Positions 50 to 35,374 of a stretch of DNA of 35,424 bases are shown piece by piece (the first letter of the stretch is position 1; each line of letters begins with the position of its first letter). The notes under the pieces were generated by a model that had not been told where the DNA came from, did no database searches, and saw only the letters and a list, made by a program, of their open reading frames with translations. The stretch lies in the UHGV virus genome UHGV-0155082. The stretch is one strand, 5' to 3'. The position numbers and the translations under genes were made by a program. The DNA is from a virus.

Positions 50-1579
50 TTAGTTTTCATTTTGGGAAATTTTTTCCAGAACTGAGTCAACCATTTTTAT
101 TCCCATCTCATTTACTACATCAGAATTAATAACTCTATCAAAATAGCTTTCTATATGTTGGGAAAAAAGGAAGGCTGCACTGGATGGTTCTTTGTTCTTT
201 TCAACTGCGTATTGCAGAACCATATGAGGAGGCACATGTGCATTTTTGCAGGATGCAACAAGGTACTCAAATTCATCAAAAGCTAAGCAAAATATATTTT
301 CTTTAGGTATGTGGTAGTCAGTATTGAATTTATCATATATCTTTAGCATCTCAGTTTCTGCATATGTACTGGCAAGGAATGTACCATTACCTAAAAATAA
401 GTTTTTATATGTAATGCATATCACAAAAGATTCTTTCCTGAATGGGGTTATTGTTGCTTTATCGTCTAAGTAAATTTCTCTGTTAACTTCATGAGCTTGC
501 TCGATAGCTTTTAAAACAGACTTTTTTATTTTTCCTGAAATATCCTCTGGCCGTAAAGTAACCATGCCTTTTTGATGTATTTCAACCCCCTTGGCATCAA
601 TGAATATATTTGCATTCGCGTGTGGAAACAAAAAATCAACTACTTTATTATCTTTGGGTAACTTTTCTTTAAGATGATCCTCTGTGATAACAGGAATATT
701 ACTCTCTTGAATAATTTTTCCTAATGCTCTTTCGAATACAGTTCCAAAACTGTCCATGAATTTTTCAGCGTCAGTTCTTCTTAAAAGGTCATATATAAAT
801 GTTTGTATGCTTCTTGATGTTAGTTGTGCATGTATCTGGAAATAATCAGAACCTTTTTTGATTAAAGGATTTTCTAAGTACGGTGAAGATGAATAGTATT
901 CTAACAAAGGCTTTTCAAATGTCTTGGATTTTGAAAATTTTGATAGCTCACTGTAATTTATTGAGATTGCATCGAGAAAGTTCTCTACGGTATCTTTGGG
1001 TAAAATAGGGAATAACACACTGAAACTATTGACATTTATTTTTCTGACGGGATGTTCCGTTGTTATTAGTGATATTAAAATGTAAGATAGTTTTAAAAAA
1101 TCATCAATTGAAATGTTTGTTAACTTGAAAAACGATGTCTTTATTTTATGAGTGTTTTCGAGTTGTGAGAATAAAAATACCTGTCTGCTAATGGAGTTTA
1201 TTGCGTCAATTTTTTGATAAATACCTTGTTGGTATAAATTATTTCTTAGAAAAAAATGCACTCCGTTTTTCTTTTCAAGACCAATGGGGATGATACTTAA
1301 AGTTTCATAGGCTTTTTGAAATAGCTTGATGGCTTGATTTTTTGTAAGGGTTTTGAACTTTCTATTCTTGCCTATTACAGATGCTGACCATTTTAAACAT
1401 AAGTTTACTATCCACGGCATATGACGCAGCATGTGTAAATTATCATCAAATTTTTGTAGATTATATTGCATGCAGAATTCAATGAATAATTCGGGGTTAT
1501 AACTTTGAATTTCTGAACGAATAGAGTCCATTCTCAGTTTAGCAACAGCATCTGATTGAATGTCTATATTTTTAATCAC
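50..1579 (-). CDS. Hypothetical 509-aa protein, AT-rich accessory gene immediately downstream of int on the same strand; possible PD-(D/E)xK-like nuclease motif in the C-terminal half
   Basis: Long ORF with GTG start at 1579 preceded on the minus strand by GGAG about 8 nt upstream. Only 12 nt separate it from the int stop. Visibly AT-rich codon usage unlike the phage core. Motif VDFLFPHANANIFIDAKGVE resembles a D...(D/E)xK nuclease core. No family recognised by eye. Confidence 0.55.
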   Translation of the reverse strand: MIKNIDIQSDAVAKLRMDSIRSEIQSYNPELFIEFCMQYNLQKFDDNLHMLRHMPWIVNLCLKWSASVIGKNRKFKTLTKNQAIKLFQKAYETLSIIPIGLEKKNGVHFFLRNNLYQQGIYQKIDAINSISRQVFLFSQLENTHKIKTSFFKLTNISIDDFLKLSYILISLITTEHPVRKINVNSFSVLFPILPKDTVENFLDAISINYSELSKFSKSKTFEKPLLEYYSSSPYLENPLIKKGSDYFQIHAQLTSRSIQTFIYDLLRRTDAEKFMDSFGTVFERALGKIIQESNIPVITEDHLKEKLPKDNKVVDFLFPHANANIFIDAKGVEIHQKGMVTLRPEDISGKIKKSVLKAIEQAHEVNREIYLDDKATITPFRKESFVICITYKNLFLGNGTFLASTYAETEMLKIYDKFNTDYHIPKENIFCLAFDEFEYLVASCKNAHVPPHMVLQYAVEKNKEPSSAAFLFSQHIESYFDRVINSDVVNEMGIKMVDSVLEKISQNEN

Positions 1580-8602: not shown

Positions 8603-8791
8603 ATGCAGGACTATTTTTTGGAGTCTTTGAAGCTCCAGCGCATTGATTTTTTTCTTAAGCTTGTAGCGGCTAGTGAGTGTAGTGATGAAGAGAAGGGGCT
8701 GGCTTTGCAGTGGGTTTCTGAACTGACAGATGAACTCATGGCAAAAATCAGAAGCCACGAATACAACCGCTCAATGGATGTCATCAGCTGA
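8603..8791 (+). CDS. Small SOS-regulated protein (62 aa), possible Tum-like antirepressor
   Basis: ATG at 8603 preceded by AGGAGG. Directly downstream of the LexA box. Followed by a DinI-like ORF, an arrangement reminiscent of 186 tum. Confidence 0.45.
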   Translation: MQDYFLESLKLQRIDFFLKLVAASECSDEEKGLALQWVSELTDELMAKIRSHEYNRSMDVIS

Positions 8792-8801
8792 GGGGACTTT
8801 T

Positions 8802-9035
8802 ATGCGCATTGAAATAATGATCGATAAAGAGCAGAAGATTAGCCAGTCTACCCTGGACGCCCTTGAATCCGAGCTTTACCGCAATCTGCGCCCCCTGTAT
8901 CCCAAAACGGTAATTCGTATCCGTAAAGGTAGCTCTAACGGTGTGGAACTGACCGGACTGCAACTGGACGAAGAAAGGAAGCAAGTGATGAAAATTATGC
9001 AGAAGGTGTGGGAAGACGACAGCTGGCTGCATTAA
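8802..9035 (+). CDS. DinI-family protein
   Basis: 77 aa starting MRIEIMIDK...; the pattern MRIE..I.K......DAL..EL.R.......P....V.....S.......G..........I..I....WE..D.W matches E. coli DinI. RBS GAGGGGA upstream. Confidence 0.75.
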   Translation: MRIEIMIDKEQKISQSTLDALESELYRNLRPLYPKTVIRIRKGSSNGVELTGLQLDEERKQVMKIMQKVWEDDSWLH

Positions 9036-9305: not shown

Positions 9306-9521
9306 ATGTCAAGCATCGCCGCATTTAGCCTGGGTAACCCAGTTGAACGTCTGGCAAGGGTTCTTAAAGAGAACCAGGACAAACTCAATCTTAGTAAAGA
9401 TGGTTTTGTGTCCGTAGACTTGTCTAACAAAAGAGCAATGGATGCCATCAAGGCACAGATGGATAAGCTTGAAGGCATCAAAACGAGCACTGTAAAAGAG
9501 AAAACTAATAGAACCAGATAA
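9306..9521 (+). CDS. Hypothetical 71-aa soluble protein, first gene of a two-gene accessory operon
   Basis: ATG preceded by AAGGGGGAG. Stop TAA overlaps the ATG of the downstream 280-aa gene (TAATG). No recognisable motif. Confidence 0.5.
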   Translation: MSSIAAFSLGNPVERLARVLKENQDKLNLSKDGFVSVDLSNKRAMDAIKAQMDKLEGIKTSTVKEKTNRTR

Positions 9522-10363
9522 TGGCAACATTACTTTTAGCAGTGATTTTGGTTAGTGGTTTTATTTATGTAAACCTATCACTTTCAACAAGATACCGATA
9601 TAAGCGTTCCAACGGCTGGGACGCTTATTTTTTTGTGGCTGCCTGGGGTATCGTTTTTTTTCTCCTTGGCGGTTTTTTCACCTTTATTTTGAACGTCAGC
9701 GGAGGGTTTCGTTGGCTGGCTAATGCCTTGAATCTAACACCTGACAGTTTTAATGGCATGTTGTCTTCATCGAAAGACAAACTTCAAAGAATAAATGAAA
9801 TCAAACAGATAGCATGGGTTATGATTTCAATTGTCCTCGCTGCGATTTCAGGTTTTGGAAATAAGTTACGCACATCACGTGGAGATCGTCGCTGGGATGC
9901 CTTAGCTAAAGCTGTGGGTAATAACGCTTTCGAATCATTACTCATGGAAGCGTCCGCAAGACAGTTTCCGATCATAGCAACTCTGTCGTCTCGCAAAATC
10001 TATGTTGGTCTTGTTACTTGTCCGGCGTTAGAAAACGGGCTTTCAGAGCACCTTGAACTTCTCCCGATGTTAAGCGGATATCGGGATAAAGATGATCTAA
10101 CGATTAGTATCACGACTAACTATCACCAACATTATCTTGATAGTGGTGTGATAAGTGGAATGTCTCGTCTTAATATCGAAGATTTCCGTGTGCTCATACC
10201 AAAAGATGAGGTTGAAACAATTTCGTTTTTTGATACTGAGACATATAACAAATTTAAAGAAAATGAAGCCAGGGATAGAAAGAGCTGTCGAAAGATTGGT
10301 AGTAAAAGTGCATCTTCGCGCAGCAAGCGTGCAGCAGATGCTGAGTCAAATGATCGTGCATGA
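9521..10363 (+). CDS. Hypothetical 280-aa integral membrane protein (three predicted TM helices plus a charged C-terminal domain)
   Basis: Hydrophobic segments LLLAVILVSGFIYVNLSL, AYFFVAAWGIVFFLLGGFFTFIL and IAWVMISIVLAAISGFG. Lysine/serine/arginine-rich C-terminal tail. Occupies the position of tin/old in P2. Followed by a terminator. Confidence 0.6.
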   Translation: MATLLLAVILVSGFIYVNLSLSTRYRYKRSNGWDAYFFVAAWGIVFFLLGGFFTFILNVSGGFRWLANALNLTPDSFNGMLSSSKDKLQRINEIKQIAWVMISIVLAAISGFGNKLRTSRGDRRWDALAKAVGNNAFESLLMEASARQFPIIATLSSRKIYVGLVTCPALENGLSEHLELLPMLSGYRDKDDLTISITTNYHQHYLDSGVISGMSRLNIEDFRVLIPKDEVETISFFDTETYNKFKENEARDRKSCRKIGSKSASSRSKRAADAESNDRA

Positions 10364-10410
10364 CTATGCTGCATGAGATCGCATGATCGTTTGAGGATCG
10401 TTTTTGCTAA

Positions 10411-10436
10411 GGCCCGCCAGAACTGGCGGGCTTTTG
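10411..10436 (+). terminator. Rho-independent terminator after the 71-aa/280-aa operon
   Basis: GC-rich hairpin gcccgccag / ctggcgggc followed by TTTT. Confidence 0.65.
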
Positions 10437-10480
10437 CGTAGATCATGCACCTGCATGAAAACTACTACATAAAGCGGGCA

Positions 10481-10499
10481 GGCGTGGCGGGGATACGAG
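10481..10499. other. Candidate cos (cohesive-end) region
   Basis: GC-rich ggcgtggcggggatacgag matches about 14 of 19 positions of the P2 cohesive end as I recall it (ggcgaggcggggaaagcac). Lies in non-coding DNA upstream of the portal/terminase cluster. Recalled from memory and not verified. Confidence 0.3.
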
Positions 10500-10588
10500 C
10501 GCGCGCTGATGGGGGACGCAGTGCTTTTGGCATAGTTATGAGGTAGAATTTCAAAATACTTTTTAGCGCTGTTGGAGGTATAGACAAA

Positions 10589-11134
10589 ATGGACGTTATA
10601 ACTGGAGTTGCAGAGTTTTTTCGAAAAGTACCTGCAGCATTTCTTGTGGCTATTACATGTGTTTTAGGTCTTATACTTTTTCTGCCAGACTCTTTGGCAG
10701 TAAAAGTGGCTGTTGATGGCTTTCGTAATGAGTATAGGATTTTTATTGGACCTGCATTTTTACTGTCTGTATCTTATTTAGTTGCAAGAGTCTATCTCTC
10801 TTTCTATGACTTACTTGGTGAAAGGCAGGCTAAGAAGGTACGCACTTCCTACCTTGAGAAGCTAACAGCAGAAGAAAAAGGATATTTAAAGTCTTATATT
10901 ACCGAAGGTGTTAATTCACTTATGTGTGGGCCTGAGGATGGGGTCATGGGGGGACTTGTGGCTAAGGGGATTACTTATAGAGCCACCAGTGTTGGGGATA
11001 TGATCTACGGTTTTGCTTTCAACTTACAGCCATGGGCGCGTGAACATTTAGAGAAAAATAGTCATTTATTAGATGGGGCTATTGGGCGTGCAATGACTCC
11101 AAGAGAAAAATTAAACTTTAGATTGGGACGCTAA
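10589..11134 (+). CDS. Hypothetical 181-aa membrane protein, possibly a superinfection-exclusion (SieB-like) protein
   Basis: ATG preceded by GGAGG. N-terminal TM helix AAFLVAITCVLGLILFLP and a second hydrophobic segment IFIGPAFLLSVSYLVARVYL. Lies between the cos-like element and the portal gene. SieB assignment is from weak recollection only. Confidence 0.45.
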   Translation: MDVITGVAEFFRKVPAAFLVAITCVLGLILFLPDSLAVKVAVDGFRNEYRIFIGPAFLLSVSYLVARVYLSFYDLLGERQAKKVRTSYLEKLTAEEKGYLKSYITEGVNSLMCGPEDGVMGGLVAKGITYRATSVGDMIYGFAFNLQPWAREHLEKNSHLLDGAIGRAMTPREKLNFRLGR

Positions 11135-19973: not shown

Positions 19974-21089
19974 GTGTTAGCAAATAATCAAATAATTGAT
20001 GTGCCCGCAGCTGGAAGCTTTAATTTTATTACCGGAGATAATGGGACCGGTAAAACAAGGTTTTTGACAATTCTGGCCAATTCGGTTTTAAATGATTTGA
20101 TTTCGAGTAGTAGTGAATATGATAAATTAATTTGCCTGACTGGTACTGTTTATGAGAAATTCCCTAGGCCATTAAAAAAGAAAGATTATAAAAGTGAGAA
20201 ATACGATAGAGTATATTCTTATTTTGGCGGCAGGGTGAACAATAACGTTTTCTCAGGTCTCTCGCCTTTTAGAGTTATAATGAAATGCTATTGTGGGTTT
20301 GAAATAAATCCTGGTTCTTTTGAGTTGGCAGATAAATTATTAAATGATCTTGGATTTAGTTCTACGGTGGAATGTAAGTTTAGAAATGAAAAGTCTAAGT
20401 TGGAGAATAGACGCTCTATAATCAACAATGAGGATGTAACTGTAGATTTATCTAAGTCTCCGTCACAACTGACTAACATGAAAAGGCAAAGCATTGCTAA
20501 TGATGATTTGTTCTTATTAAATATAAATTTTGTTAAGCTTTCTGATAAAAAATCATATGGCATACGAGATCTGAGTTCTGGTGAACGAAGTTTTATAATA
20601 ACAATATTGTCACTTGTGTTTAGTTTGAGAGAGCGAACCCTCATTTTATTTGATGAGCCAGAGAACTCAATGCACCCTAAATGGCAGGAGAAAATAATAT
20701 CAACAATTAAGTATATTGTTGATATGCTATCACCTGAATCAACTGTAATAATTGCAACTCATTCCCCATTGGTTGTTTCATGTGTGACAAATAATAATAC
20801 ATTTACATTGAATTTGCCTGGTGAGCACATATGGAAAGCTTCATATTATGCTGGTAATAACGCTGATTCAGTGTTAAAGGAACAGTTTGGGGTGATCTCG
20901 CCAAGATCTGAAGAATTTCAGATTGCTATGCAAAAATGTTTGACTTCATTTAGTTTGAATGAAGAAGGTGGTTCTTTCTTGCAGGATATGGAGCGATTGT
21001 TTGGGATGAAAATATCCTTAAATAAGGATGACCCACTTTATGATGCTTATGAGACACTTACGGATTTTTATCTGGAGAGGAAACTATGA
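19974..21089 (+). CDS. ABC-type/AAA_21-like ATPase, Septu PtuA-like candidate defence ATPase
   Basis: 371 aa, AT-rich. Walker A GDNGTGKTR (residues about 21-29), signature-like LSSGERS, Walker B LILFDEPE, H-loop-like ATHSPLV. GTG start with AGGTG upstream. Stop overlaps the start of the HNH gene (ATGA). Confidence 0.75.
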   Translation: MLANNQIIDVPAAGSFNFITGDNGTGKTRFLTILANSVLNDLISSSSEYDKLICLTGTVYEKFPRPLKKKDYKSEKYDRVYSYFGGRVNNNVFSGLSPFRVIMKCYCGFEINPGSFELADKLLNDLGFSSTVECKFRNEKSKLENRRSIINNEDVTVDLSKSPSQLTNMKRQSIANDDLFLLNINFVKLSDKKSYGIRDLSSGERSFIITILSLVFSLRERTLILFDEPENSMHPKWQEKIISTIKYIVDMLSPESTVIIATHSPLVVSCVTNNNTFTLNLPGEHIWKASYYAGNNADSVLKEQFGVISPRSEEFQIAMQKCLTSFSLNEEGGSFLQDMERLFGMKISLNKDDPLYDAYETLTDFYLERKL

Positions 21090-21775
21090 GCTTGGGTCCG
21101 GGGAAGCTAAGTCCGGTGCATAGGGTTTTTATAAACAGAAGGGAAGCTAGACTGTTGATAGCTGAATTTCTTTCTGGAACAATTCTTTGGTCTGATCCAA
21201 AGTTATCTGCGCTAAAGAATAATATAAGGCTCTCTTTACGAGAGCAGCAATGTGGGCGTTGTGTTTTTTGTCGGAGAATAATAAAAGAGGAGCGCAGAAA
21301 CACTACTGAAGATATTGAGCACTTTCTGGATAAATCCAAAGGGTACTATAAGAAATGGGCCTTTCATCCTATGAATTTATCTATAGCATGTCACTCATGC
21401 AACTTTGTTAAAAGTACGAAGCAAATGGGAGATGTTAATATTCAGCGCGCGCAGTATCTAGTGCCTGGTATTGGTGTGTTTAGGTGGTTGCATCCATATT
21501 TTGACGACTATCATGAAAATATCTCAATAGAGAAGGGTTGGGTATATCGTATTGTTGATGGAGCGCCAAATCATAATGGAGCAGAAAATTTAATTAGAGA
21601 ATGTGAGTTGTCGGGAATAGCTAATATAGAACGCAATGCTGAGAATTATAAATTGACCTGTCAAAGGCTATTAAAGTTAGCAATTGCTTGTGCCGAAAAA
21701 GGTCGAATTACACGAATGAAAAAATTGCAGTTGTCTTTGCAGAAATTAATGGAATCGAAACAATTTGACTTTTAG
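21086..21775 (+). CDS. HNH endonuclease, Septu PtuB-like candidate defence nuclease
   Basis: 229 aa. CGRCVFC ... EDIEHFLDKSKGYYKKWAFHPMNLSIACHSCN gives an H...N...H core flanked by C-x2-C pairs (zinc-finger HNH). Translationally coupled to the upstream ATPase. Confidence 0.8.
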   Translation: MSLGPGKLSPVHRVFINRREARLLIAEFLSGTILWSDPKLSALKNNIRLSLREQQCGRCVFCRRIIKEERRNTTEDIEHFLDKSKGYYKKWAFHPMNLSIACHSCNFVKSTKQMGDVNIQRAQYLVPGIGVFRWLHPYFDDYHENISIEKGWVYRIVDGAPNHNGAENLIRECELSGIANIERNAENYKLTCQRLLKLAIACAEKGRITRMKKLQLSLQKLMESKQFDF

Positions 21776-21861: not shown

Positions 21862-21879
21862 TGTATTGTGAATGATACA
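21862..21879. promoter_or_regulatory. Ogr/Delta-type activator site (TGT-N12-ACA) of the V late promoter
   Basis: TGTattgtgaatgatACA, immediately upstream of the V gene start region and downstream of the inserted cassette. Confidence 0.55.
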
Positions 21880-23756: not shown

Positions 23757-24354
23757 TCTGCTGCCACCGGGTTCAACTTCACTGGAGCGACGACTGGCGC
23801 AAACCTGCAGCGGGATTTCTGATCTGCAGGTGCCGCTGCGTGACTTGTGGAATCCGGCAACCTGTCCGGTCAGTTTCCTGCCTTATCTCGCCTGGGCGTT
23901 CTCTGTGGATCGCTGGGATGAGGGCTGGACAGAAAGCGTTAAGCGCCAGGTGGTGAAGGATGCTTTTTATATTCATCAGCATAAAGGGACCACCAGTGCC
24001 GTGCGGCGGGTGGTGGAGCCGTTCGGCTTTCTGATCCGCATTATTGAGTGGTGGCAGACCGGAGAGGCACCGGGCACGTTTCGTCTGGATATCGGCGTGC
24101 AGGACCAGGGCATCACTGAAGATACCTATCTGGAACTTGAGCGACTGATAAGCGATGCCAAACCATGTAGCCGTCACATGATCGGCATGTCCATCAACCT
24201 GCAGACCAGCGGCCAGCATTGGGTGGGAGCCGCCAGCTATCTTGGCGAAGAAATCACGATCTATCCGTATATCAACGAAACAATTATTTCCGGCGGCACC
24301 GCGCATGAAGGCGGGGCGGTCCATGTTATTGACACAATGAGAGTGAATCCATGA
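23749..24354 (+). CDS. I: Baseplate/tail protein I (P2 gpI-like)
   Basis: 201 aa. Start overlaps the J stop. Directly upstream of the tail fibre gene. Confidence 0.75.
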   Translation: MNSLLPPGSTSLERRLAQTCSGISDLQVPLRDLWNPATCPVSFLPYLAWAFSVDRWDEGWTESVKRQVVKDAFYIHQHKGTTSAVRRVVEPFGFLIRIIEWWQTGEAPGTFRLDIGVQDQGITEDTYLELERLISDAKPCSRHMIGMSINLQTSGQHWVGAASYLGEEITIYPYINETIISGGTAHEGGAVHVIDTMRVNP

Positions 24355-25778
24355 GCACAAAATTTTATACCCTGCTGACGGATATTGGCGCGGCGAAACT
24401 TGCCAGCGCCGCCGCGCTCGGTGTGCCGCTAAAAATTACCCATATGGCGGTGGGCGATGGCGGCGGAGCATTGCCGACGCCGGACGCAAAGCAGACTGCA
24501 CTGGTAAATGAGAAACGCCGGGCTGCGCTGAATATGCTCTATATCGACCCGCAGAACAGCAGCCAGATTATTGCTGAACAGGTGATCCCTGAAAACGAGG
24601 GCGGTTGGTGGATACGTGAAGTGGGCCTGTTTGATGAGTCAGGGGCATTGATTGCCGTGGGCAACTGCCCGGAAAGCTATAAACCGCAACTGGCTGAAGG
24701 CAGCGGGCGTACCCAGACCGTACGGATGGTGCTGATTACCAGCAGTACCGATAATATCACACTGAAAATTGACCCTTCAGTGGTGCTGGCAACCCGCAAG
24801 TATGTGGATGACAAGGTGCTTGAGCTTAAGGTGTATGTGGATGACCTGATGGCAAAGCATCTTGCTGCTGCAGATCCTCATACGCAGTATGCGCCCAAAG
24901 ACAGCCCAACATTGACTGGCACGCCGAAAACGCCAACAGCACCGGCGGGAACTAACACGACTCAGATTGCTAGCACGGCATTTGTGCAGGCGGTGGTCAC
25001 TGCGCTAAATAACGCACTGGCGTTGAAAGCTCCACTGGCAAGTCCGGCCTTGACCGGAACGCCGACGGCTCCGACTGCAGCGCAGACGGCGAACAATACG
25101 CAGATTGCCACCACGGCATTTGTGAAAGCGGCAGTTGCCGAGATGGTCGGTTCATCGCCGGAGGCGCTGGATACGTTAAATGAATTGGCTGCTGCGCTGG
25201 GGAATGATCCTAACTTTGCGACAACAGTAATGAGTGCGCTGGCGGGAAAAATGAACAAAGCAGCTAATGGCGCTGATATTGCCGATGTTTCTGCTTTTCT
25301 AAAAAACCTTCATCTTGGGGAGGGCAGTGCGTTGCCAGTCGGTGTTCCTGTTCCGTGGCCTACTGCAATACCGCCGGAAGGTTGGTTGAAGTGTAATGGA
25401 GCATCATTCAGTTCCTCGCAATATCCGAAACTGGCGCAGGTTTATCCGTCATTAAAATTACCAGATCTACGCAGTGAGTTTATTCGCGGCTGGGACGATG
25501 GGCGTGGCGTAGACGCTGGACGTCAGGTTCTAACGTCTCAGACTGATGCTATGCAGCCGATTATCGGCTCCATTGGCTATGGTACAAACGGTATGTTTAC
25601 TTATGCTGATGGAGCTTTTACGGGTATAGATCGTGAAAGCGGAGACGGTATTGTTACACAGGCAACAAGCATCTCACAATATAAACAGGCTCACTTAGAT
25701 TCAAGTACGATAACACGAACAGCGGCAGAAACACGTCCACGGAATATTTCATTTAATTACATTGTGAGAGCAGCATAA
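24351..25778 (+). CDS. H: Tail fibre protein H
   Basis: 475 aa. Conserved N-terminus MSTKFYTLLTDIGAAKLASAAALGVPLKITHMAVGDGGG. Thr/Ala/Pro-rich repeats in the shaft. C-terminal motif PWP...GWLKCNG...YPKLA...LPDLRSEFIRGWDDGRGVD typical of fibre receptor-binding regions. Confidence 0.85.
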   Translation: MSTKFYTLLTDIGAAKLASAAALGVPLKITHMAVGDGGGALPTPDAKQTALVNEKRRAALNMLYIDPQNSSQIIAEQVIPENEGGWWIREVGLFDESGALIAVGNCPESYKPQLAEGSGRTQTVRMVLITSSTDNITLKIDPSVVLATRKYVDDKVLELKVYVDDLMAKHLAAADPHTQYAPKDSPTLTGTPKTPTAPAGTNTTQIASTAFVQAVVTALNNALALKAPLASPALTGTPTAPTAAQTANNTQIATTAFVKAAVAEMVGSSPEALDTLNELAAALGNDPNFATTVMSALAGKMNKAANGADIADVSAFLKNLHLGEGSALPVGVPVPWPTAIPPEGWLKCNGASFSSSQYPKLAQVYPSLKLPDLRSEFIRGWDDGRGVDAGRQVLTSQTDAMQPIIGSIGYGTNGMFTYADGAFTGIDRESGDGIVTQATSISQYKQAHLDSSTITRTAAETRPRNISFNYIVRAA

Positions 25779-26374
25779 TGACAGAAGCGAAACTAAATAA
25801 TGAGTTTATAGCTGTGGAATCTGGCAATATAACGGTGTTTAACTTTGATATTGAAACTCGTGAATATCTTTCTTCTAGTGTTGAATTTCTTGCTGTAGGG
25901 GTTGGGATTCCTGCTAATTCATGCATTGATATGCCGGGTAAAAGTAAAAAAGGGTTAACCATTTGCCGGACTAAGGATCTTACCGCGTGGGAATATATTG
26001 CTGATCATCGAGGTGAGACTGTTTACAGCACCGAAACTGGCAAAAAAATAGCTGTAACAGTGCTCGGCGATTACCCAGAAAAAACTACGAAACTACCTCC
26101 TGCTACACCATACGATAAGTGGAACGGTAGTGCATGGGTGACAGATACCGAGATGCAGCACGAGGTTGACGTGGAAACTGCTGATCAGAAGAAAGCGGAG
26201 CTTCTGGCAAAGGCTCAGCTAACAATCAATCTATGGCAGACAGAACTACAATTAGGAATTATCAGTGATGAAGATAAAGTCAGACTAATCACCTGGATGA
26301 ATTACATCAAAGCGGTGCAGTTGGTAGACACGTCAACTGCGCCAGATATAACGTGGCCGAGGAAGCCCGAGTGA
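25778..26374 (+). CDS. G: Tail fibre assembly chaperone (P2 gpG/Tfa-like)
   Basis: 198 aa. Start overlaps the H stop (TAATG). Position and size as P2 gpG. Confidence 0.7.
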   Translation: MTEAKLNNEFIAVESGNITVFNFDIETREYLSSSVEFLAVGVGIPANSCIDMPGKSKKGLTICRTKDLTAWEYIADHRGETVYSTETGKKIAVTVLGDYPEKTTKLPPATPYDKWNGSAWVTDTEMQHEVDVETADQKKAELLAKAQLTINLWQTELQLGIISDEDKVRLITWMNYIKAVQLVDTSTAPDITWPRKPE

Positions 26375-26501
26375 CTGAGAATTAAATGGTTAGTATCATC
26401 CTCCCCCACACTGCCTATATGGTATGAATACGAGGGGGAGGCTGTTTGTTGTCTGTTTCTGTGATAATATTAGATTCTCGTTTTTTAATAAAAAAATCAA
26501 T

Positions 26502-27512
26502 ATGAAAGAGAATAAAATACGTTCTGCCGATGGCGTGAGAGGTTTCGCTTTGATGATTGTTGTGGTGATGCATGCTACGGGACTATTCTTTCCCTCACTT
26601 CATGATCATCTCGGAGGTACGGGGCAGCCCGGTGTTTGGTTGTTTTTTGTTCTTAGCGCCTTTTTGTTGACACATAAATTTATTAATTCTGGTTTTTCGT
26701 TTTTGAATGTGTTGAGTTATCTTTTAGGGCGAACAATAAGGATATTACCGATTTTTTATATTGCAGTATTAATTTATTACCTTATGGGATTTTATGATTT
26801 AGAGAAAATGAAATCGATAATTTCATTTGATAGTACTTACATCCATCTCTGGACTATTCCGATAGAATTCAAGTTTTACTTTTTGTTGCCGATTGTGGTT
26901 TATCTCGCATCTAGTATCCAGAAAGTTGCAGGTAGAAAATATTCTTTGTTGTTTTTGATATTGTTAACCTTAGCGTTCGCTTTTATATACCCTTATACGG
27001 ATGACGAAATCAACGGTAGGCTACCGTATTACATTCCTGTTTTTATGTATGGAATTATAATTGCGTTTATGTATAACTATTTTCAAATTAAAATATCATC
27101 TCTCGTTAGTGATGGGGTGTCAATTGCGATTATATTAATATTTATAATGTTGACCCCTCCTTTTCAGGGGGCTAATGGTTGGCTGGGTAATAAATTTGTG
27201 GTATTAGGGCCATTTATTGCTCTCTTTGTATATCTGCAAGTAAATTCCAGTGGGTATGTAAGCGCGGTTTTATCTTCAAAAATCATGGCGGATTTGGGGA
27301 AATATAGTTTTTCAATTTATTTGTTTCATATAATGATAATTTTTATTGTTTATCCTAAATTTTTGGATAATGTTACTGCATACTTAGTTACTATAGCTTT
27401 ATGTATTGGCGGTGGGGCTATTGCCTATCATTGCATTGAATCTCCCTTGGAATCGTTCAGACATAAGCTTATGAAAAGAATAACGCAGGCTTATCAGAAT
27501 CAAAATATTTAA
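26502..27512 (+). CDS. Acyltransferase family 3 integral membrane protein (OafA/Oac-like, probable O-antigen/LPS acyltransferase)
   Basis: AT-rich ORF; the six-frame ORF begins at 26424 and the likely ATG is at 26502. N-terminal R-x-x-D-G-V-R-G-x-A...H motif (IRSADGVRGFALMIVVVMHATG) of the acyltransferase_3 family. About 10 hydrophobic segments. Located between G and FI. Confidence 0.75.
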   Translation: MKENKIRSADGVRGFALMIVVVMHATGLFFPSLHDHLGGTGQPGVWLFFVLSAFLLTHKFINSGFSFLNVLSYLLGRTIRILPIFYIAVLIYYLMGFYDLEKMKSIISFDSTYIHLWTIPIEFKFYFLLPIVVYLASSIQKVAGRKYSLLFLILLTLAFAFIYPYTDDEINGRLPYYIPVFMYGIIIAFMYNYFQIKISSLVSDGVSIAIILIFIMLTPPFQGANGWLGNKFVVLGPFIALFVYLQVNSSGYVSAVLSSKIMADLGKYSFSIYLFHIMIIFIVYPKFLDNVTAYLVTIALCIGGGAIAYHCIESPLESFRHKLMKRITQAYQNQNI

Positions 27513-27526
27513 GTAAAAGCAAAAAA

Positions 27527-27553
27527 GGCTCTCGTCAACCGACGAAGCCTTTT
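27527..27553 (+). terminator. Rho-independent terminator after the acyltransferase gene
   Basis: Hairpin ggctctcgtc-aacc-gacgaagcc followed by TTTT. Confidence 0.6.
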
Positions 27554-27646
27554 AAAACGAGTATTAATTCCCGTCCTGTAAAGTGCCCCCTATCCCAGAA
27601 CAACGTTTTTAGTTATCAACGCCGTTCCGAAAATTTCCTGCGACGT

Positions 27647-27664
27647 TGTGTGATTAACCGTACA
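27647..27664. promoter_or_regulatory. Ogr/Delta-type activator site (TGT-N12-ACA) of the FI late promoter
   Basis: TGTgtgattaaccgtACA, centred about 85 bp upstream of the FI start. Confidence 0.55.
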
Positions 27665-27740: not shown

Positions 27741-28913
27741 ATGGCTCAGGATTACCACCACGGGGTGCGCGTTGTTGAAGTCAACGAAGGCACCCGATCC
27801 ATTACCACGGTGAGCACCGCTATCGTGGGTATGGTCTGCACGGGCGATGATGCCGATGCAAAAATGTTTCCTCTTAATAAACCCGTGCTGATCACTGATG
27901 TGCTGACTGCCAGCGGTAAAGCGGGTGAGTCCGGTACTCTGGCCCGTTCGCTGGATGCCATCGCTGACCAGGCAAAACCCGTGACCGTTGTTGTGCGTGT
28001 GCCGCAGGGTGAAACGGAAGAAGAAACCACAACCAATATCATCGGTGCAGTGACCGCTGAAGGTAAAAAAACAGGCATGAAAGCCCTGTTATCTGCCCAG
28101 TCACAGCTCGGCGTTAAACCGCGCATTCTCGGCGTGCCGGGTCACGATAACAAAGCCGTAGCGACTGAGCTGCTGAGTGTGGCGCAAAGCCTGCGCGGGT
28201 TTGCTTACCTGTCGGCGTATGGCTGCAAAACAGTGGAAGAAGTGCTTACCTACCGCGAAAACTTCAGCCAGCGTGAAGGGATGCTGATCTGGCCGGATTT
28301 TATCAGCTGGGACACGGTGCTGAATGCCGAAGCAACGGCTTATGCCACCGCGCGTGCGCTTGGTCTGCGCGCCAAAATTGACGAGCAGACCGGATGGCAC
28401 AAAAGCCTGTCCAACGTGGGCGTGAACGGTGTCACCGGAATTTCTGCTGATGTGTTCTGGGATCTGCAGGACCCGGCAACAGATGCAGGTCTGCTGAACC
28501 AGAACGACGTCACCACGCTTGTGCGCAAAGACGGTTTCCGCTTCTGGGGGTCCCGCTGCTTGAGTGATGACCCACTCTTTGCCTTCGAAAACTACACCCG
28601 CACGGCGCAGGTGCTGATGGACACGATGGCAGAAGCGCATATGTGGGCGGTGGACAAACCGCTGAACTCGTCGCTGGCCCGCGACATTATCGAAGGTATC
28701 CGCGCCAAAATGCGCAGCCTGGTCAGTCAGGGCTATCTCATTGGTGGTGATTGCTGGCTGGACGAGTCGGTGAATGACAAAGACACTCTGAAAGCCGGAA
28801 AACTCACCATCGATTACGACTACACGCCAGTACCGCCACTTGAAAACCTGATGCTGCGCCAGCGCATCACCGATCAGTACCTGGTGAATTTCTCCAGCCA
28901 GGTCAGCGCGTAA
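27741..28913 (+). CDS. FI: Tail sheath protein (P2 gpFI-like)
   Basis: 390 aa (P2 FI is 396). Strong RBS AGGAGG. Followed by the tube gene. Confidence 0.9.
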
Positions 28914-34872: not shown

Positions 34873-34894
34873 AACCTGCTACGGCAGGTTTTTA
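34873..34894. terminator. Bidirectional rho-independent terminator between ogr and the convergent BRCT-domain gene
   Basis: Hairpin aacctgc-tacg-gcaggtt followed by TTTTTATT on the plus strand; T-rich on the other strand as well. Confidence 0.65.
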
Positions 34895-35374
34895 TTCATC
34901 TGGGATCTCACCCGTTTCAAGAAAATGTATAAAGCCAGGCTCATCTATGATGATTGTGCCTTTCATCCTGGCTGCCGATACTTTTGATGGGCCTGCATTG
35001 TAACCGCAACAGAGCATCTGAAGGCTTTGGGTTACAGAGGTTCTTACCGTTAATCCTTGGTCATTCGCCTTATCAACCAATCTTTCTTTATCTGCTTTCT
35101 TAAATCCGGTGAAACACACATCGAATGTATTTTTTTTCGGACCTGACTGCTTAGTGAGATGTGAGTAGTTTTCGGGGAGGAATGACGCGCATTCCTGAAT
35201 GGCTTGTTCTGGTGAATCGTACTGTTTAAGAATGCGGTCTTTTCGGAAGGTTTTTATTCGATCGGTGTTTTTACAAATGCCCTGTATATGATTTTCGCTA
35301 TAACTGATGCTCTGTATAGAGTGAACACCGATACGACCATTTGCATTGATGTAAACAAAGTGAAGTTCTTCCAT
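34892..35374 (-). CDS. Small BRCT-domain protein (160 aa), function unknown
   Basis: The C-terminal 80 aa (FDVCFTGFKKADKERLVDKANDQGLTVRTSVTQSLQMLCCGYNAGPSKVSAARMKGTIIIDEPGFIHFL) align by eye to the NAD-ligase BRCT domain pattern (TG...R..a......G..v..SV...t..lv.G..aGsK..kA...G..iI.E..f). N-terminal 70 aa unassigned. Confidence 0.5.
   Translation of the reverse strand: MEELHFVYINANGRIGVHSIQSISYSENHIQGICKNTDRIKTFRKDRILKQYDSPEQAIQECASFLPENYSHLTKQSGPKKNTFDVCFTGFKKADKERLVDKANDQGLTVRTSVTQSLQMLCCGYNAGPSKVSAARMKGTIIIDEPGFIHFLETGEIPDE

Follow-up and report, generated by a model that had tools for sequence, protein, structure and literature searches.

The stretch of DNA analyzed here, called the window in the following, comprises 35,424 nucleotides (nt) of the virus genome UHGV-0155082 and holds a P2-like (Peduoviridae) prophage. 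Its left end carries the integrase gene int and the CI repressor gene, followed by the capsid genes, the tail genes V-W-J-I-H-G and the genes FI-FII-E-T-U-D-ogr. The tail region shares ~94% nucleotide identity with the Escherichia phages Cartapus and 500465-1 and with many Klebsiella prophages. The subject of this analysis is a gene for a membrane acyltransferase of the acyltransferase-3 (AT3) family, which directly follows the tail fibre genes H and G in this temperate-phage unit of int, cI, capsid and tail genes. The locus shows the following features, listed with the evidence for each.

24351–25778, plus strand: tail fibre gene H, 475 amino acids (aa); Pfam Phage_tail_fib and Collar in an orthologue of identical length, PHROG 327 at 4e-199
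25778–26374, plus strand: tail fibre assembly chaperone gene G, 198 aa; PHROG 105 at 5.6e-81, Caudo_TAP_N and Caudo_TAP in orthologues
26400–26441, plus strand: G+C-rich hairpin (CCTCCCCC...GGGGGAGG), then a U-rich tract at 26442–26460; fold of the region and covariation
26462–26470, plus strand: extended −10 promoter-like element TGATAATAT (TGnTAATAT); pattern search and alignment A3
26502–27512, plus strand: AT3-only membrane O-acyltransferase gene, 336 aa and stop codon (longest open reading frame (ORF) from 26424); PF01757, PHROG 3333, motifs, about ten transmembrane segments, AlphaFold2 model, ratio of non-synonymous to synonymous substitution rates (dN/dS)
27523–27553, plus strand: terminator-like hairpin after the AT3 stop codon; ΔG −16.5 kcal/mol, z −4.64, 0 of 200 shuffles as stable
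27647–27664, plus strand: TGT-N12-ACA element, Ogr-type activator site of the late promoter pF; pattern search
27741–28913, plus strand: tail sheath gene FI, which opens the F late operon and borders the slot on the right; Phage_sheath_1 domains, 390-aa orthologue

The AT3 gene occupies the slot from G to FI, the same slot that is held by fun(Z) in P2. This assignment to the Z/fun position, made in an earlier sequence-only reading, is confirmed by the ORF positions of G (25778–26374) and FI (27741–28913); the counterpart of FI is annotated as sheath in Cartapus and 500465-1. In these two phages the slot contains an inverted alternative fibre tip, a chaperone and a Gin-type DNA invertase (L001 4661–6066 and L002 4934–6366, respectively). 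An inverted fibre segment together with an invertase constitutes a host-range switch. In the window the AT3 gene takes the place of this entire switch. In the alignment with Cartapus, homology to the AT3-less relatives comes back only from ~27645, at the pF promoter, and the sequences are near-identical thereafter. A remnant of an invertase gene, considered on account of E. coli matches annotated as "recombinase", was rejected: these matches start at ~27627 and the homology to Cartapus at ~27645, leaving at most ~20 nt for such a remnant.

An intact AT3-only acyltransferase gene

The gene lies in an uninterrupted ORF of 362 codons (26424–27512, plus strand). Its product matches the Pfam family Acyl_transf_3 (PF01757) with 94.1 bits against a cut-off of 31 (E 1.1e-26), residues 34–334 covering positions 3–324 of the 326 in the profile, and PHROG 3333 "O-acetyltransferase" at 8e-42. 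The G+C content (GC) of the gene is 0.34 compared to 0.52–0.56 in H and FI. An AT-rich gene of the acyltransferase_3 family had been claimed from the letters, and both GC and Pfam score bear this out. With a single Pfam domain, 336 aa and no fused SGNH domain the protein is of the AT3-only type. The NCBIfam search of the protein returned a SucT match alone, which was below threshold, and the PADLOC defence models gave no match.

The start coordinate is the point on which the earlier reading has to be corrected. ATG 26502 is most likely the true start, giving 336 aa, and the start at 26424 was rejected. Most close homologues as retrieved (P0002, P0003, P0004, P0005, P0007 and P0008, with lengths of 333–344 aa) start at MKENK or a near variant of it, P0001, called 20 residues longer, being the exception among the close homologues; the Pfam match starts at residue 34, and the conserved promoter-like element falls inside the 5′ extension. 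Residue numbers count from the M at 26502.

Essential residues known from mutagenesis of OafB, OafA and Oac (PMC9833829) comprise the R-X10-H motif of transmembrane helix 1, with Arg14/His25 in OafB, the RXXR motif of transmembrane helix 3, and W138/E143, E334 and R338. All of them have counterparts in the window protein, namely R13/H24, R77/R80, W117/E122, E313 and R320. The N-terminal motif is present as R7-S-A-D10-G-V-R13-G...H24, and the R-X10-H of helix 1 reads R13-GFALMIVVVM-H24. In an alignment of 40 homologues with identities down to 32%, H24 never varies, and no fewer than 90% of the sequences have R13. Both arginines of the RXXR motif on the cytoplasmic face of helix 3 (R77-T-I-R80) are invariant, and W117, E122, E313 and R320 are invariant or nearly so. 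The R/H motif noticed at first sight thus passed the alignment check for the catalytic histidine and arginines, with R13, H24, R77 and R80 kept in the homologues.

Hydropathy analysis revealed nine clear hydrophobic segments and a weaker one at residues 175–193, in accordance with the earlier count of about ten. An AlphaFold2 model built from the 40 homologues is all-helical (pLDDT 91.2, pTM 0.90), and its last helix, residues 291–335, ends the model. The model thus predicts the ten-helix AT3 membrane fold, in which a central pore would be expected. Among solved structures it has one meaningful match, human HGSNAT in complex with coenzyme A (CoA) (8vli, probability 1.00, TMq 0.49), an acetyl-CoA-dependent transmembrane acetyltransferase. 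This match fits the TmAT fold that AT3 proteins and HGSNAT are reported to share (PMC12423673). Searches of a copy of the PDB turned up no bacterial AT3 structure, whether by sequence, which gave no hit at all, or by fold.

Pairwise dN/dS between alleles is 0.09–0.11 over a dS range of 0.12–1.4; the AT3 gene is therefore under purifying selection. The set includes the allele in a decayed Enterobacter asburiae prophage remnant, of which int, cI, a truncated H, G, AT3, D and ogr are left. Taken together, an intact, real gene of the AT3 family is confirmed.

Flanking elements

The hairpin following G keeps all of its 8 pairs in four alleles, with one compensatory change from C-G to U-A. Over the whole 95-nt stretch its energy does not differ significantly from that of shuffled sequences (z −1.07). 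It is a putative terminator, which would close the H-G late transcript and insulate the cargo gene. Directly downstream, the extended −10 element is kept in the four phage-borne alleles with "n" as the sole varying base (alignment A3). A good −35 is not present, as is expected of extended −10 promoters. We regard TGATAATAT as the putative own promoter of the AT3 gene.

The hairpin after the stop codon (27523–27553) corresponds to the gene's own terminator that had been proposed. Its stem takes in an A-run and a U-run, so that it looks bidirectional. It is kept in three other alleles in which both arms are changed and, as read from alignment A4, the diverged alleles L009 and L007 preserve the pairing with different stem sequences. 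Farther downstream, the TGT-N12-ACA element at 27647–27664 places the AT3 gene directly upstream of the FI late promoter, as the sequence-only reading had stated. With a distance of 77–94 nt to the ATG of FI its position is comparable to that of the pF activator site in the P2 record, 69–97 nt upstream of FI. Because the gene is framed by the upstream hairpin, the extended −10 element, its own terminator hairpin and the pF element, the layout is that of a moron: promoter, gene and terminator between two late operons, with promoter and upstream terminator being putative.

Relatives and their genomic contexts

Genomic contexts were examined for 13 members of the clade. The relatives, with their identity to the window protein, are as follows.

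P0001, 97%: P2-like prophages, same slot, same H and G
P0002 (Silvania), 91%: same slot, different fibre upstream
P0004 (Enterobacter asburiae), 79%: decayed P2-like prophage remnant
P0006, 70%: different myovirus-type prophage, after fibre and chaperone
P0007, 61%: rearranged P2-like element, after fibre and chaperone
P0012, P0010, 611R6 and P0013, 40–45%: directly after the tailspike gene in P22-like, epsilon15-like and another prophage type
P0045 (Pantoea), 38%: adjoining gtrA, gtrB and a GT_STM0557-type glycosyltransferase
P0008 (Ewingella), 60%, and P0069 (Yersinia), 38%: outside phages

In ten of the 13 cases a tail-fibre or tailspike gene, with its chaperone gene where there is one, directly precedes the AT3 gene. 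The prophages concerned are of five architectures: P2-like, P22-like, epsilon15-like, a second myovirus type and one other. The position beside receptor-binding genes is thus recurrent, and the tailspike-adjacent slots are those of the characterized oac genes in Sf6 and phiV10. The host gene ybjL beside P0001 is only 81% identical to that of E. coli, and the host of P0001 therefore belongs to another enterobacterial genus.

At nucleotide level the AT3 gene found no match in 50,697 phage records, and in 5,426 E. coli genomes the pF promoter stretch alone was matched. The tip of H and G likewise went unmatched in both nucleotide collections, the E. coli genomes in question being complete. Hence the module is rare. 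A profile scan of genome contigs with the 40-sequence alignment yielded relatives of at most 38% identity throughout, from Pseudomonas, Legionella, Pantoea and others, and brought up no O-antigen-cluster copy for closer examination. The Legionella proteins might be orthologues of lag-1.

Two further arrangements were observed among the relatives. In Yersinia enterocolitica (L099 8001–9436, near smpB) a 38% AT3 relative is followed, with an overlap of 4 nt, by a gene for a SASA-domain protein. This protein is sialate O-acetylesterase-like and at least 133 aa long, the retrieved stretch breaking off ~50 nt past its gene. The pair may be a split version of the arrangement that is fused in OafA and OafB, AT3 plus a periplasmic transferase or esterase. 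By Pfam content and gene order, L105 (7001–9702) and L011–L014 (9001–11836) share the same right-end module of AT3, a 128-aa Peptidase_S24 protein and integrase. Its location on the chromosome, beside a Form_Nir_trans gene and mlaA, appears to be identical in both, and the module is joined to a myovirus-type tail in one assembly (L105) and to P22-like podovirus modules in E. coli.

A shared block of fibre tip, chaperone and AT3 gene

Comparison of the window with the relative L003 gave a backbone identity of 67–85%, whereas the block of H tip, G, AT3 gene and terminator (~24900–27650) is 90–98% identical. Within H the identity climbs from 72–84% to 89–96% from ~24600 to 24900 onward; the 3′ part of H from ~24900 thus belongs to the conserved block that contains the AT3 gene. 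A block of this identity in such a backbone has moved as one piece, and the AT3 gene was apparently co-transferred with the fibre tip. In E. coli, the tailspike receptor-binding domains beside related AT3 genes are homologous between P22-like and epsilon15-like prophages, and the AT3 proteins of these prophages are 66% identical to each other.

Possibly, though we hold this with some doubt, fibre tip, chaperone and AT3 gene form an exchangeable "adsorb-and-mask" cassette that moves between unrelated temperate backbones. The enzyme would then acetylate the very glycan recognized by the fibre, and the cassette would here have displaced the invertase-switched fibre. If so, each acquisition would bring a new host range and, simultaneously, self-exclusion on that host.

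Proposed function

We consider it rather probable that the gene codes for a functional stand-alone, AT3-only inner-membrane O-acyltransferase, carried as a moron in the G-FI slot, that modifies the O-antigen in the lysogen and excludes phages. Expression during lysogeny, acetyl-CoA as donor, O-antigen as acceptor and phage exclusion as the effect are the inferred parts of this reading. In the lysogen, transcription would start from the gene's own extended −10 promoter. The hairpin after G would shield the gene from late transcription upstream, and the gene's own terminator would separate it from the F operon. By analogy to OafB, OafA and Oac and to the mechanism modelled for OafB (PMC9833829), the ten-helix pore would admit cytoplasmic acetyl-CoA, the phosphates of CoA being held by R13, R77, R80 and R320. 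Acetyl transfer would be catalyzed on the periplasmic side by H24, which lies at that end of helix 1, and would target a hydroxyl group on a sugar of a surface polysaccharide, most probably the undecaprenyl-linked O-antigen repeat. The acetylated glycan would then change the serotype and hinder adsorption of phages using it, probably including the phage with the prophage's own fibre.

The O-antigen is the most likely acceptor because of the AT3-only architecture shared with Oac, the position beside receptor-binding genes and the gtr cassette of one relative; altered serotype and reduced phage adsorption would be the most likely outcome. The recurrence of the clade 3′ of receptor-binding genes in unrelated temperate phages and the link to gtrA/gtrB strengthen the reading as an Oac/OafA-type conversion factor.

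Several points weigh against this proposal. Identity to the characterized phage enzymes is low, 23–27% at best, and phiV10 Oac is barely alignable with the window protein (BLASTP 21% over the N-terminal 140 residues, E 0.87). The sequence of an AT3 protein is no predictor of its acceptor, as members of the family also acylate capsule, enterobacterial common antigen (ECA), peptidoglycan, osmoregulated periplasmic glucans (OPGs), Nod factors and antibiotics (PMC9558356). A capsule or other glycan as acceptor is a serious alternative. As for expression, the promoter was recognized by its pattern match alone, and the hairpin after the AT3 gene has just four U's on the plus strand, a simple scan flagging the minus strand only. 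Finally, the 91%-identical allele (P0002) lies behind a different tail fibre. The coupling to one receptor-binding domain is therefore not strict, and part of the association with fibre genes could be due to an insertion site that is merely permissive.

Among the rival explanations, the same chemistry on another acceptor is the one to be taken most seriously, although we rate it as rather unlikely. Capsule or K-antigen, ECA (WecH-like), colanic acid, the lipopolysaccharide core or periplasmic glucans (OpgC-like) would come into question, and the benefit could be phage exclusion at the capsule level or immune evasion. The many acceptors of the AT3 family (PMC9558356) agree with it. So do the many Klebsiella prophages among the backbone relatives and the close alleles in Enterobacter and Silvania, hosts in which the capsule often dominates phage adsorption, as well as the Ewingella (60%) and Yersinia (38%) relatives outside phages. 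However, the tailspike-adjacent AT3-only enzymes Sf6 Oac and phiV10 Oac act on O-antigen, one member of the clade adjoins the O-antigen-specific gtrA/gtrB cassette, and none of the clade members examined resides in a capsule, ECA or OPG locus.

We consider it improbable that the gene is kept mainly for a benefit other than phage exclusion, namely serotype change, immune evasion or fitness of the host in its environment, the phage serving only as carrier. In Salmonella and Shigella, O-acetylation is an immunodominant modification that changes recognition by antibodies (PMC9558356), and the allele in a remnant prophage unable to make particles is kept at a dN/dS of ~0.09. Yet a position directly after receptor-binding genes, found in five phage architectures, would be difficult to account for if adsorption were not involved, and this prophage has GapS1, SieB and Septu as three further anti-phage cargos; host benefit and phage exclusion are not mutually exclusive. 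An inert passenger, silent in the lysogen, decaying or a chance ORF in AT-rich DNA, can scarcely account for the gene. No Shine-Dalgarno sequence precedes ATG 26502, and the GC of 34% marks recently acquired DNA, but a 336-codon ORF in DNA of this composition fits the profile end to end, its essential residues are all intact, dN/dS is ~0.1 across alleles diverged up to a dS of 1.4, and the flanking regulatory elements are conserved.

Other cargo of the prophage

Further accessory genes were detected in the window. Between the tail completion gene S and a TGT-N12-ACA element at 21862, upstream of the baseplate gene V, lies a Septu system (19974–21775, plus strand, GC 0.34–0.40) consisting of PtuA (371 aa, PADLOC 4e-41, Pfam AAA_21) and PtuB (229 aa, 1e-27). 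The same S-V junction holds a 564-aa gene in L003 and a 165-aa gene in L009. Downstream of int, a 509-aa ORF (50–1579, minus strand, GC 0.30–0.34) matches NCBIfam antiphage_GapS1 at 6e-134 with 447 bits (cut-off 320) and PHROG 14259; Pfam and PADLOC gave no match. In an E. coli relative integrated at ssrA, an anti-phage dCTP deaminase is found at the GapS1 position, which makes the int-proximal end another defence slot.

The superinfection-exclusion protein SieB (10589–11134, Pfam 4.5e-25) is encoded within 9521–11134 (plus strand). It is preceded by a 280-aa protein of PHROG 3630 that has no Pfam, NCBIfam or PADLOC match. The pair has a GC of 0.41–0.44 and adjoins the portal gene, the region equivalent to tin/old. 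A DinI-like protein (8730–9035, plus strand, Pfam 1.3e-22) follows the replication gene; a DinI gene also occurs in the Pantoea island with an AT3 relative (L101). Downstream of ogr, a 160-aa ORF (34892–35374, minus strand) is BRCT- or ligase-C-terminal-like and matches PHROG 2561 "DNA ligase" at 3.5e-77. As a unit with ogr it has counterparts of 98.6% identity in 182 of the 5,426 E. coli genomes, in one of which it stands beside ssrA, the gene for transfer-messenger RNA, in a decayed P2-like remnant.

The AT3 enzyme would add a predicted surface-level layer to GapS1, SieB and Septu, so that four layers of cargo would be stacked in one prophage.

Novelty and significance

Phage-borne AT3 O-acetyltransferases are textbook lysogenic-conversion factors (PMC9558356). 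The cargo of P2 and P4 hotspots is described as defence systems in the hotspot surveys that were checked, and according to one of these, accessory genes of any other type are not known from P2-like phages. Acyltransferases are not mentioned in the main text of the checked papers on P2 diversity and hotspots, and absence there is no proof of novelty. What is new is modest: an uncharacterized clade, an AT3 gene in the G-FI slot of a P2-like phage and its apparent co-transfer with a fibre tip. The predicted function implies that this slot can hold receptor-level protection. If the O-antigen is acetylated, lysogeny would alter the serotype and the phage susceptibility of the enterobacterial host, which would be of relevance for serotyping, glycoconjugate vaccines and the choice of therapy phages. 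The recurrent pairing of AT3 and receptor-binding genes further suggests a testable rule for predicting the glycan target of a prophage fibre or tailspike.

Comparison with known systems

Judged by sequence comparison, the relation to the characterized enzymes Sf6 Oac, OafB and phiV10 Oac is one of family and not of close orthology. P2 fun(Z) shares the slot from G to the pF activator site and FI, and both genes are non-essential lysogenic-conversion cargo. Fun(Z) blocks T5. In contrast to the AT3 gene, fun(Z) has the opposite orientation and encodes a large protein with no membrane annotation in the P2 record, as opposed to an enzyme with ten transmembrane segments here. Homology between the two proteins was considered and rejected (BLASTP E 2.5).

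Oac of phiV10, an epsilon15-like phage of E. coli O157:H7, is a phage AT3-only protein as well. Its gene lies between the tailspike and lysis genes and is annotated as superinfection immunity. In epsilon15-like prophages of E. coli, this very slot houses the gene for a protein with 44% identity to the window protein.

The best match to a characterized protein in the phage collection is the AT3 domain of BTP1 OafB (family II GtrC) with 27% identity over residues 10–329, and the essential residues of OafB map one to one onto the window protein. Like the window gene, OafB is prophage-borne, and it protects against the carrying phage (PMC9558356). In OafB and OafA a fused periplasmic SGNH domain performs the final transfer, whereas helix 10 closes the window protein, and the surroundings of the AT3 gene lack an SGNH or SASA partner. 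The expression of OafB is phase-variable (PMC9558356). No GATC sites were seen on reading the region upstream of ATG 26502.

A close counterpart in architecture is Oac of the Shigella phage Sf6 (OacA, with the paralogues OacB, OacC and OacD), which is AT3-only with ~335 aa and no SGNH domain, like the window protein. The identity of 20–23% indicates the same family and not an orthologue, and Sf6 is a P22-like podovirus compared to the P2-like myovirus of the window. The two proteins nevertheless align over their full length in a profile comparison (probability 91%), including the R...H of helix 1 and the RxxR motif (RARRIFP with R73-A-R-R76 in Sf6 Oac versus GRTIRILP). Similar to the window gene after its fibre module, Sf6 oac is a separate transcription unit directly after the tailspike gene, in the order tailspike, oac, int. 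Its product acetylates the rhamnose of the O-antigen and thereby blocks Sf6 itself (PMC9558356).

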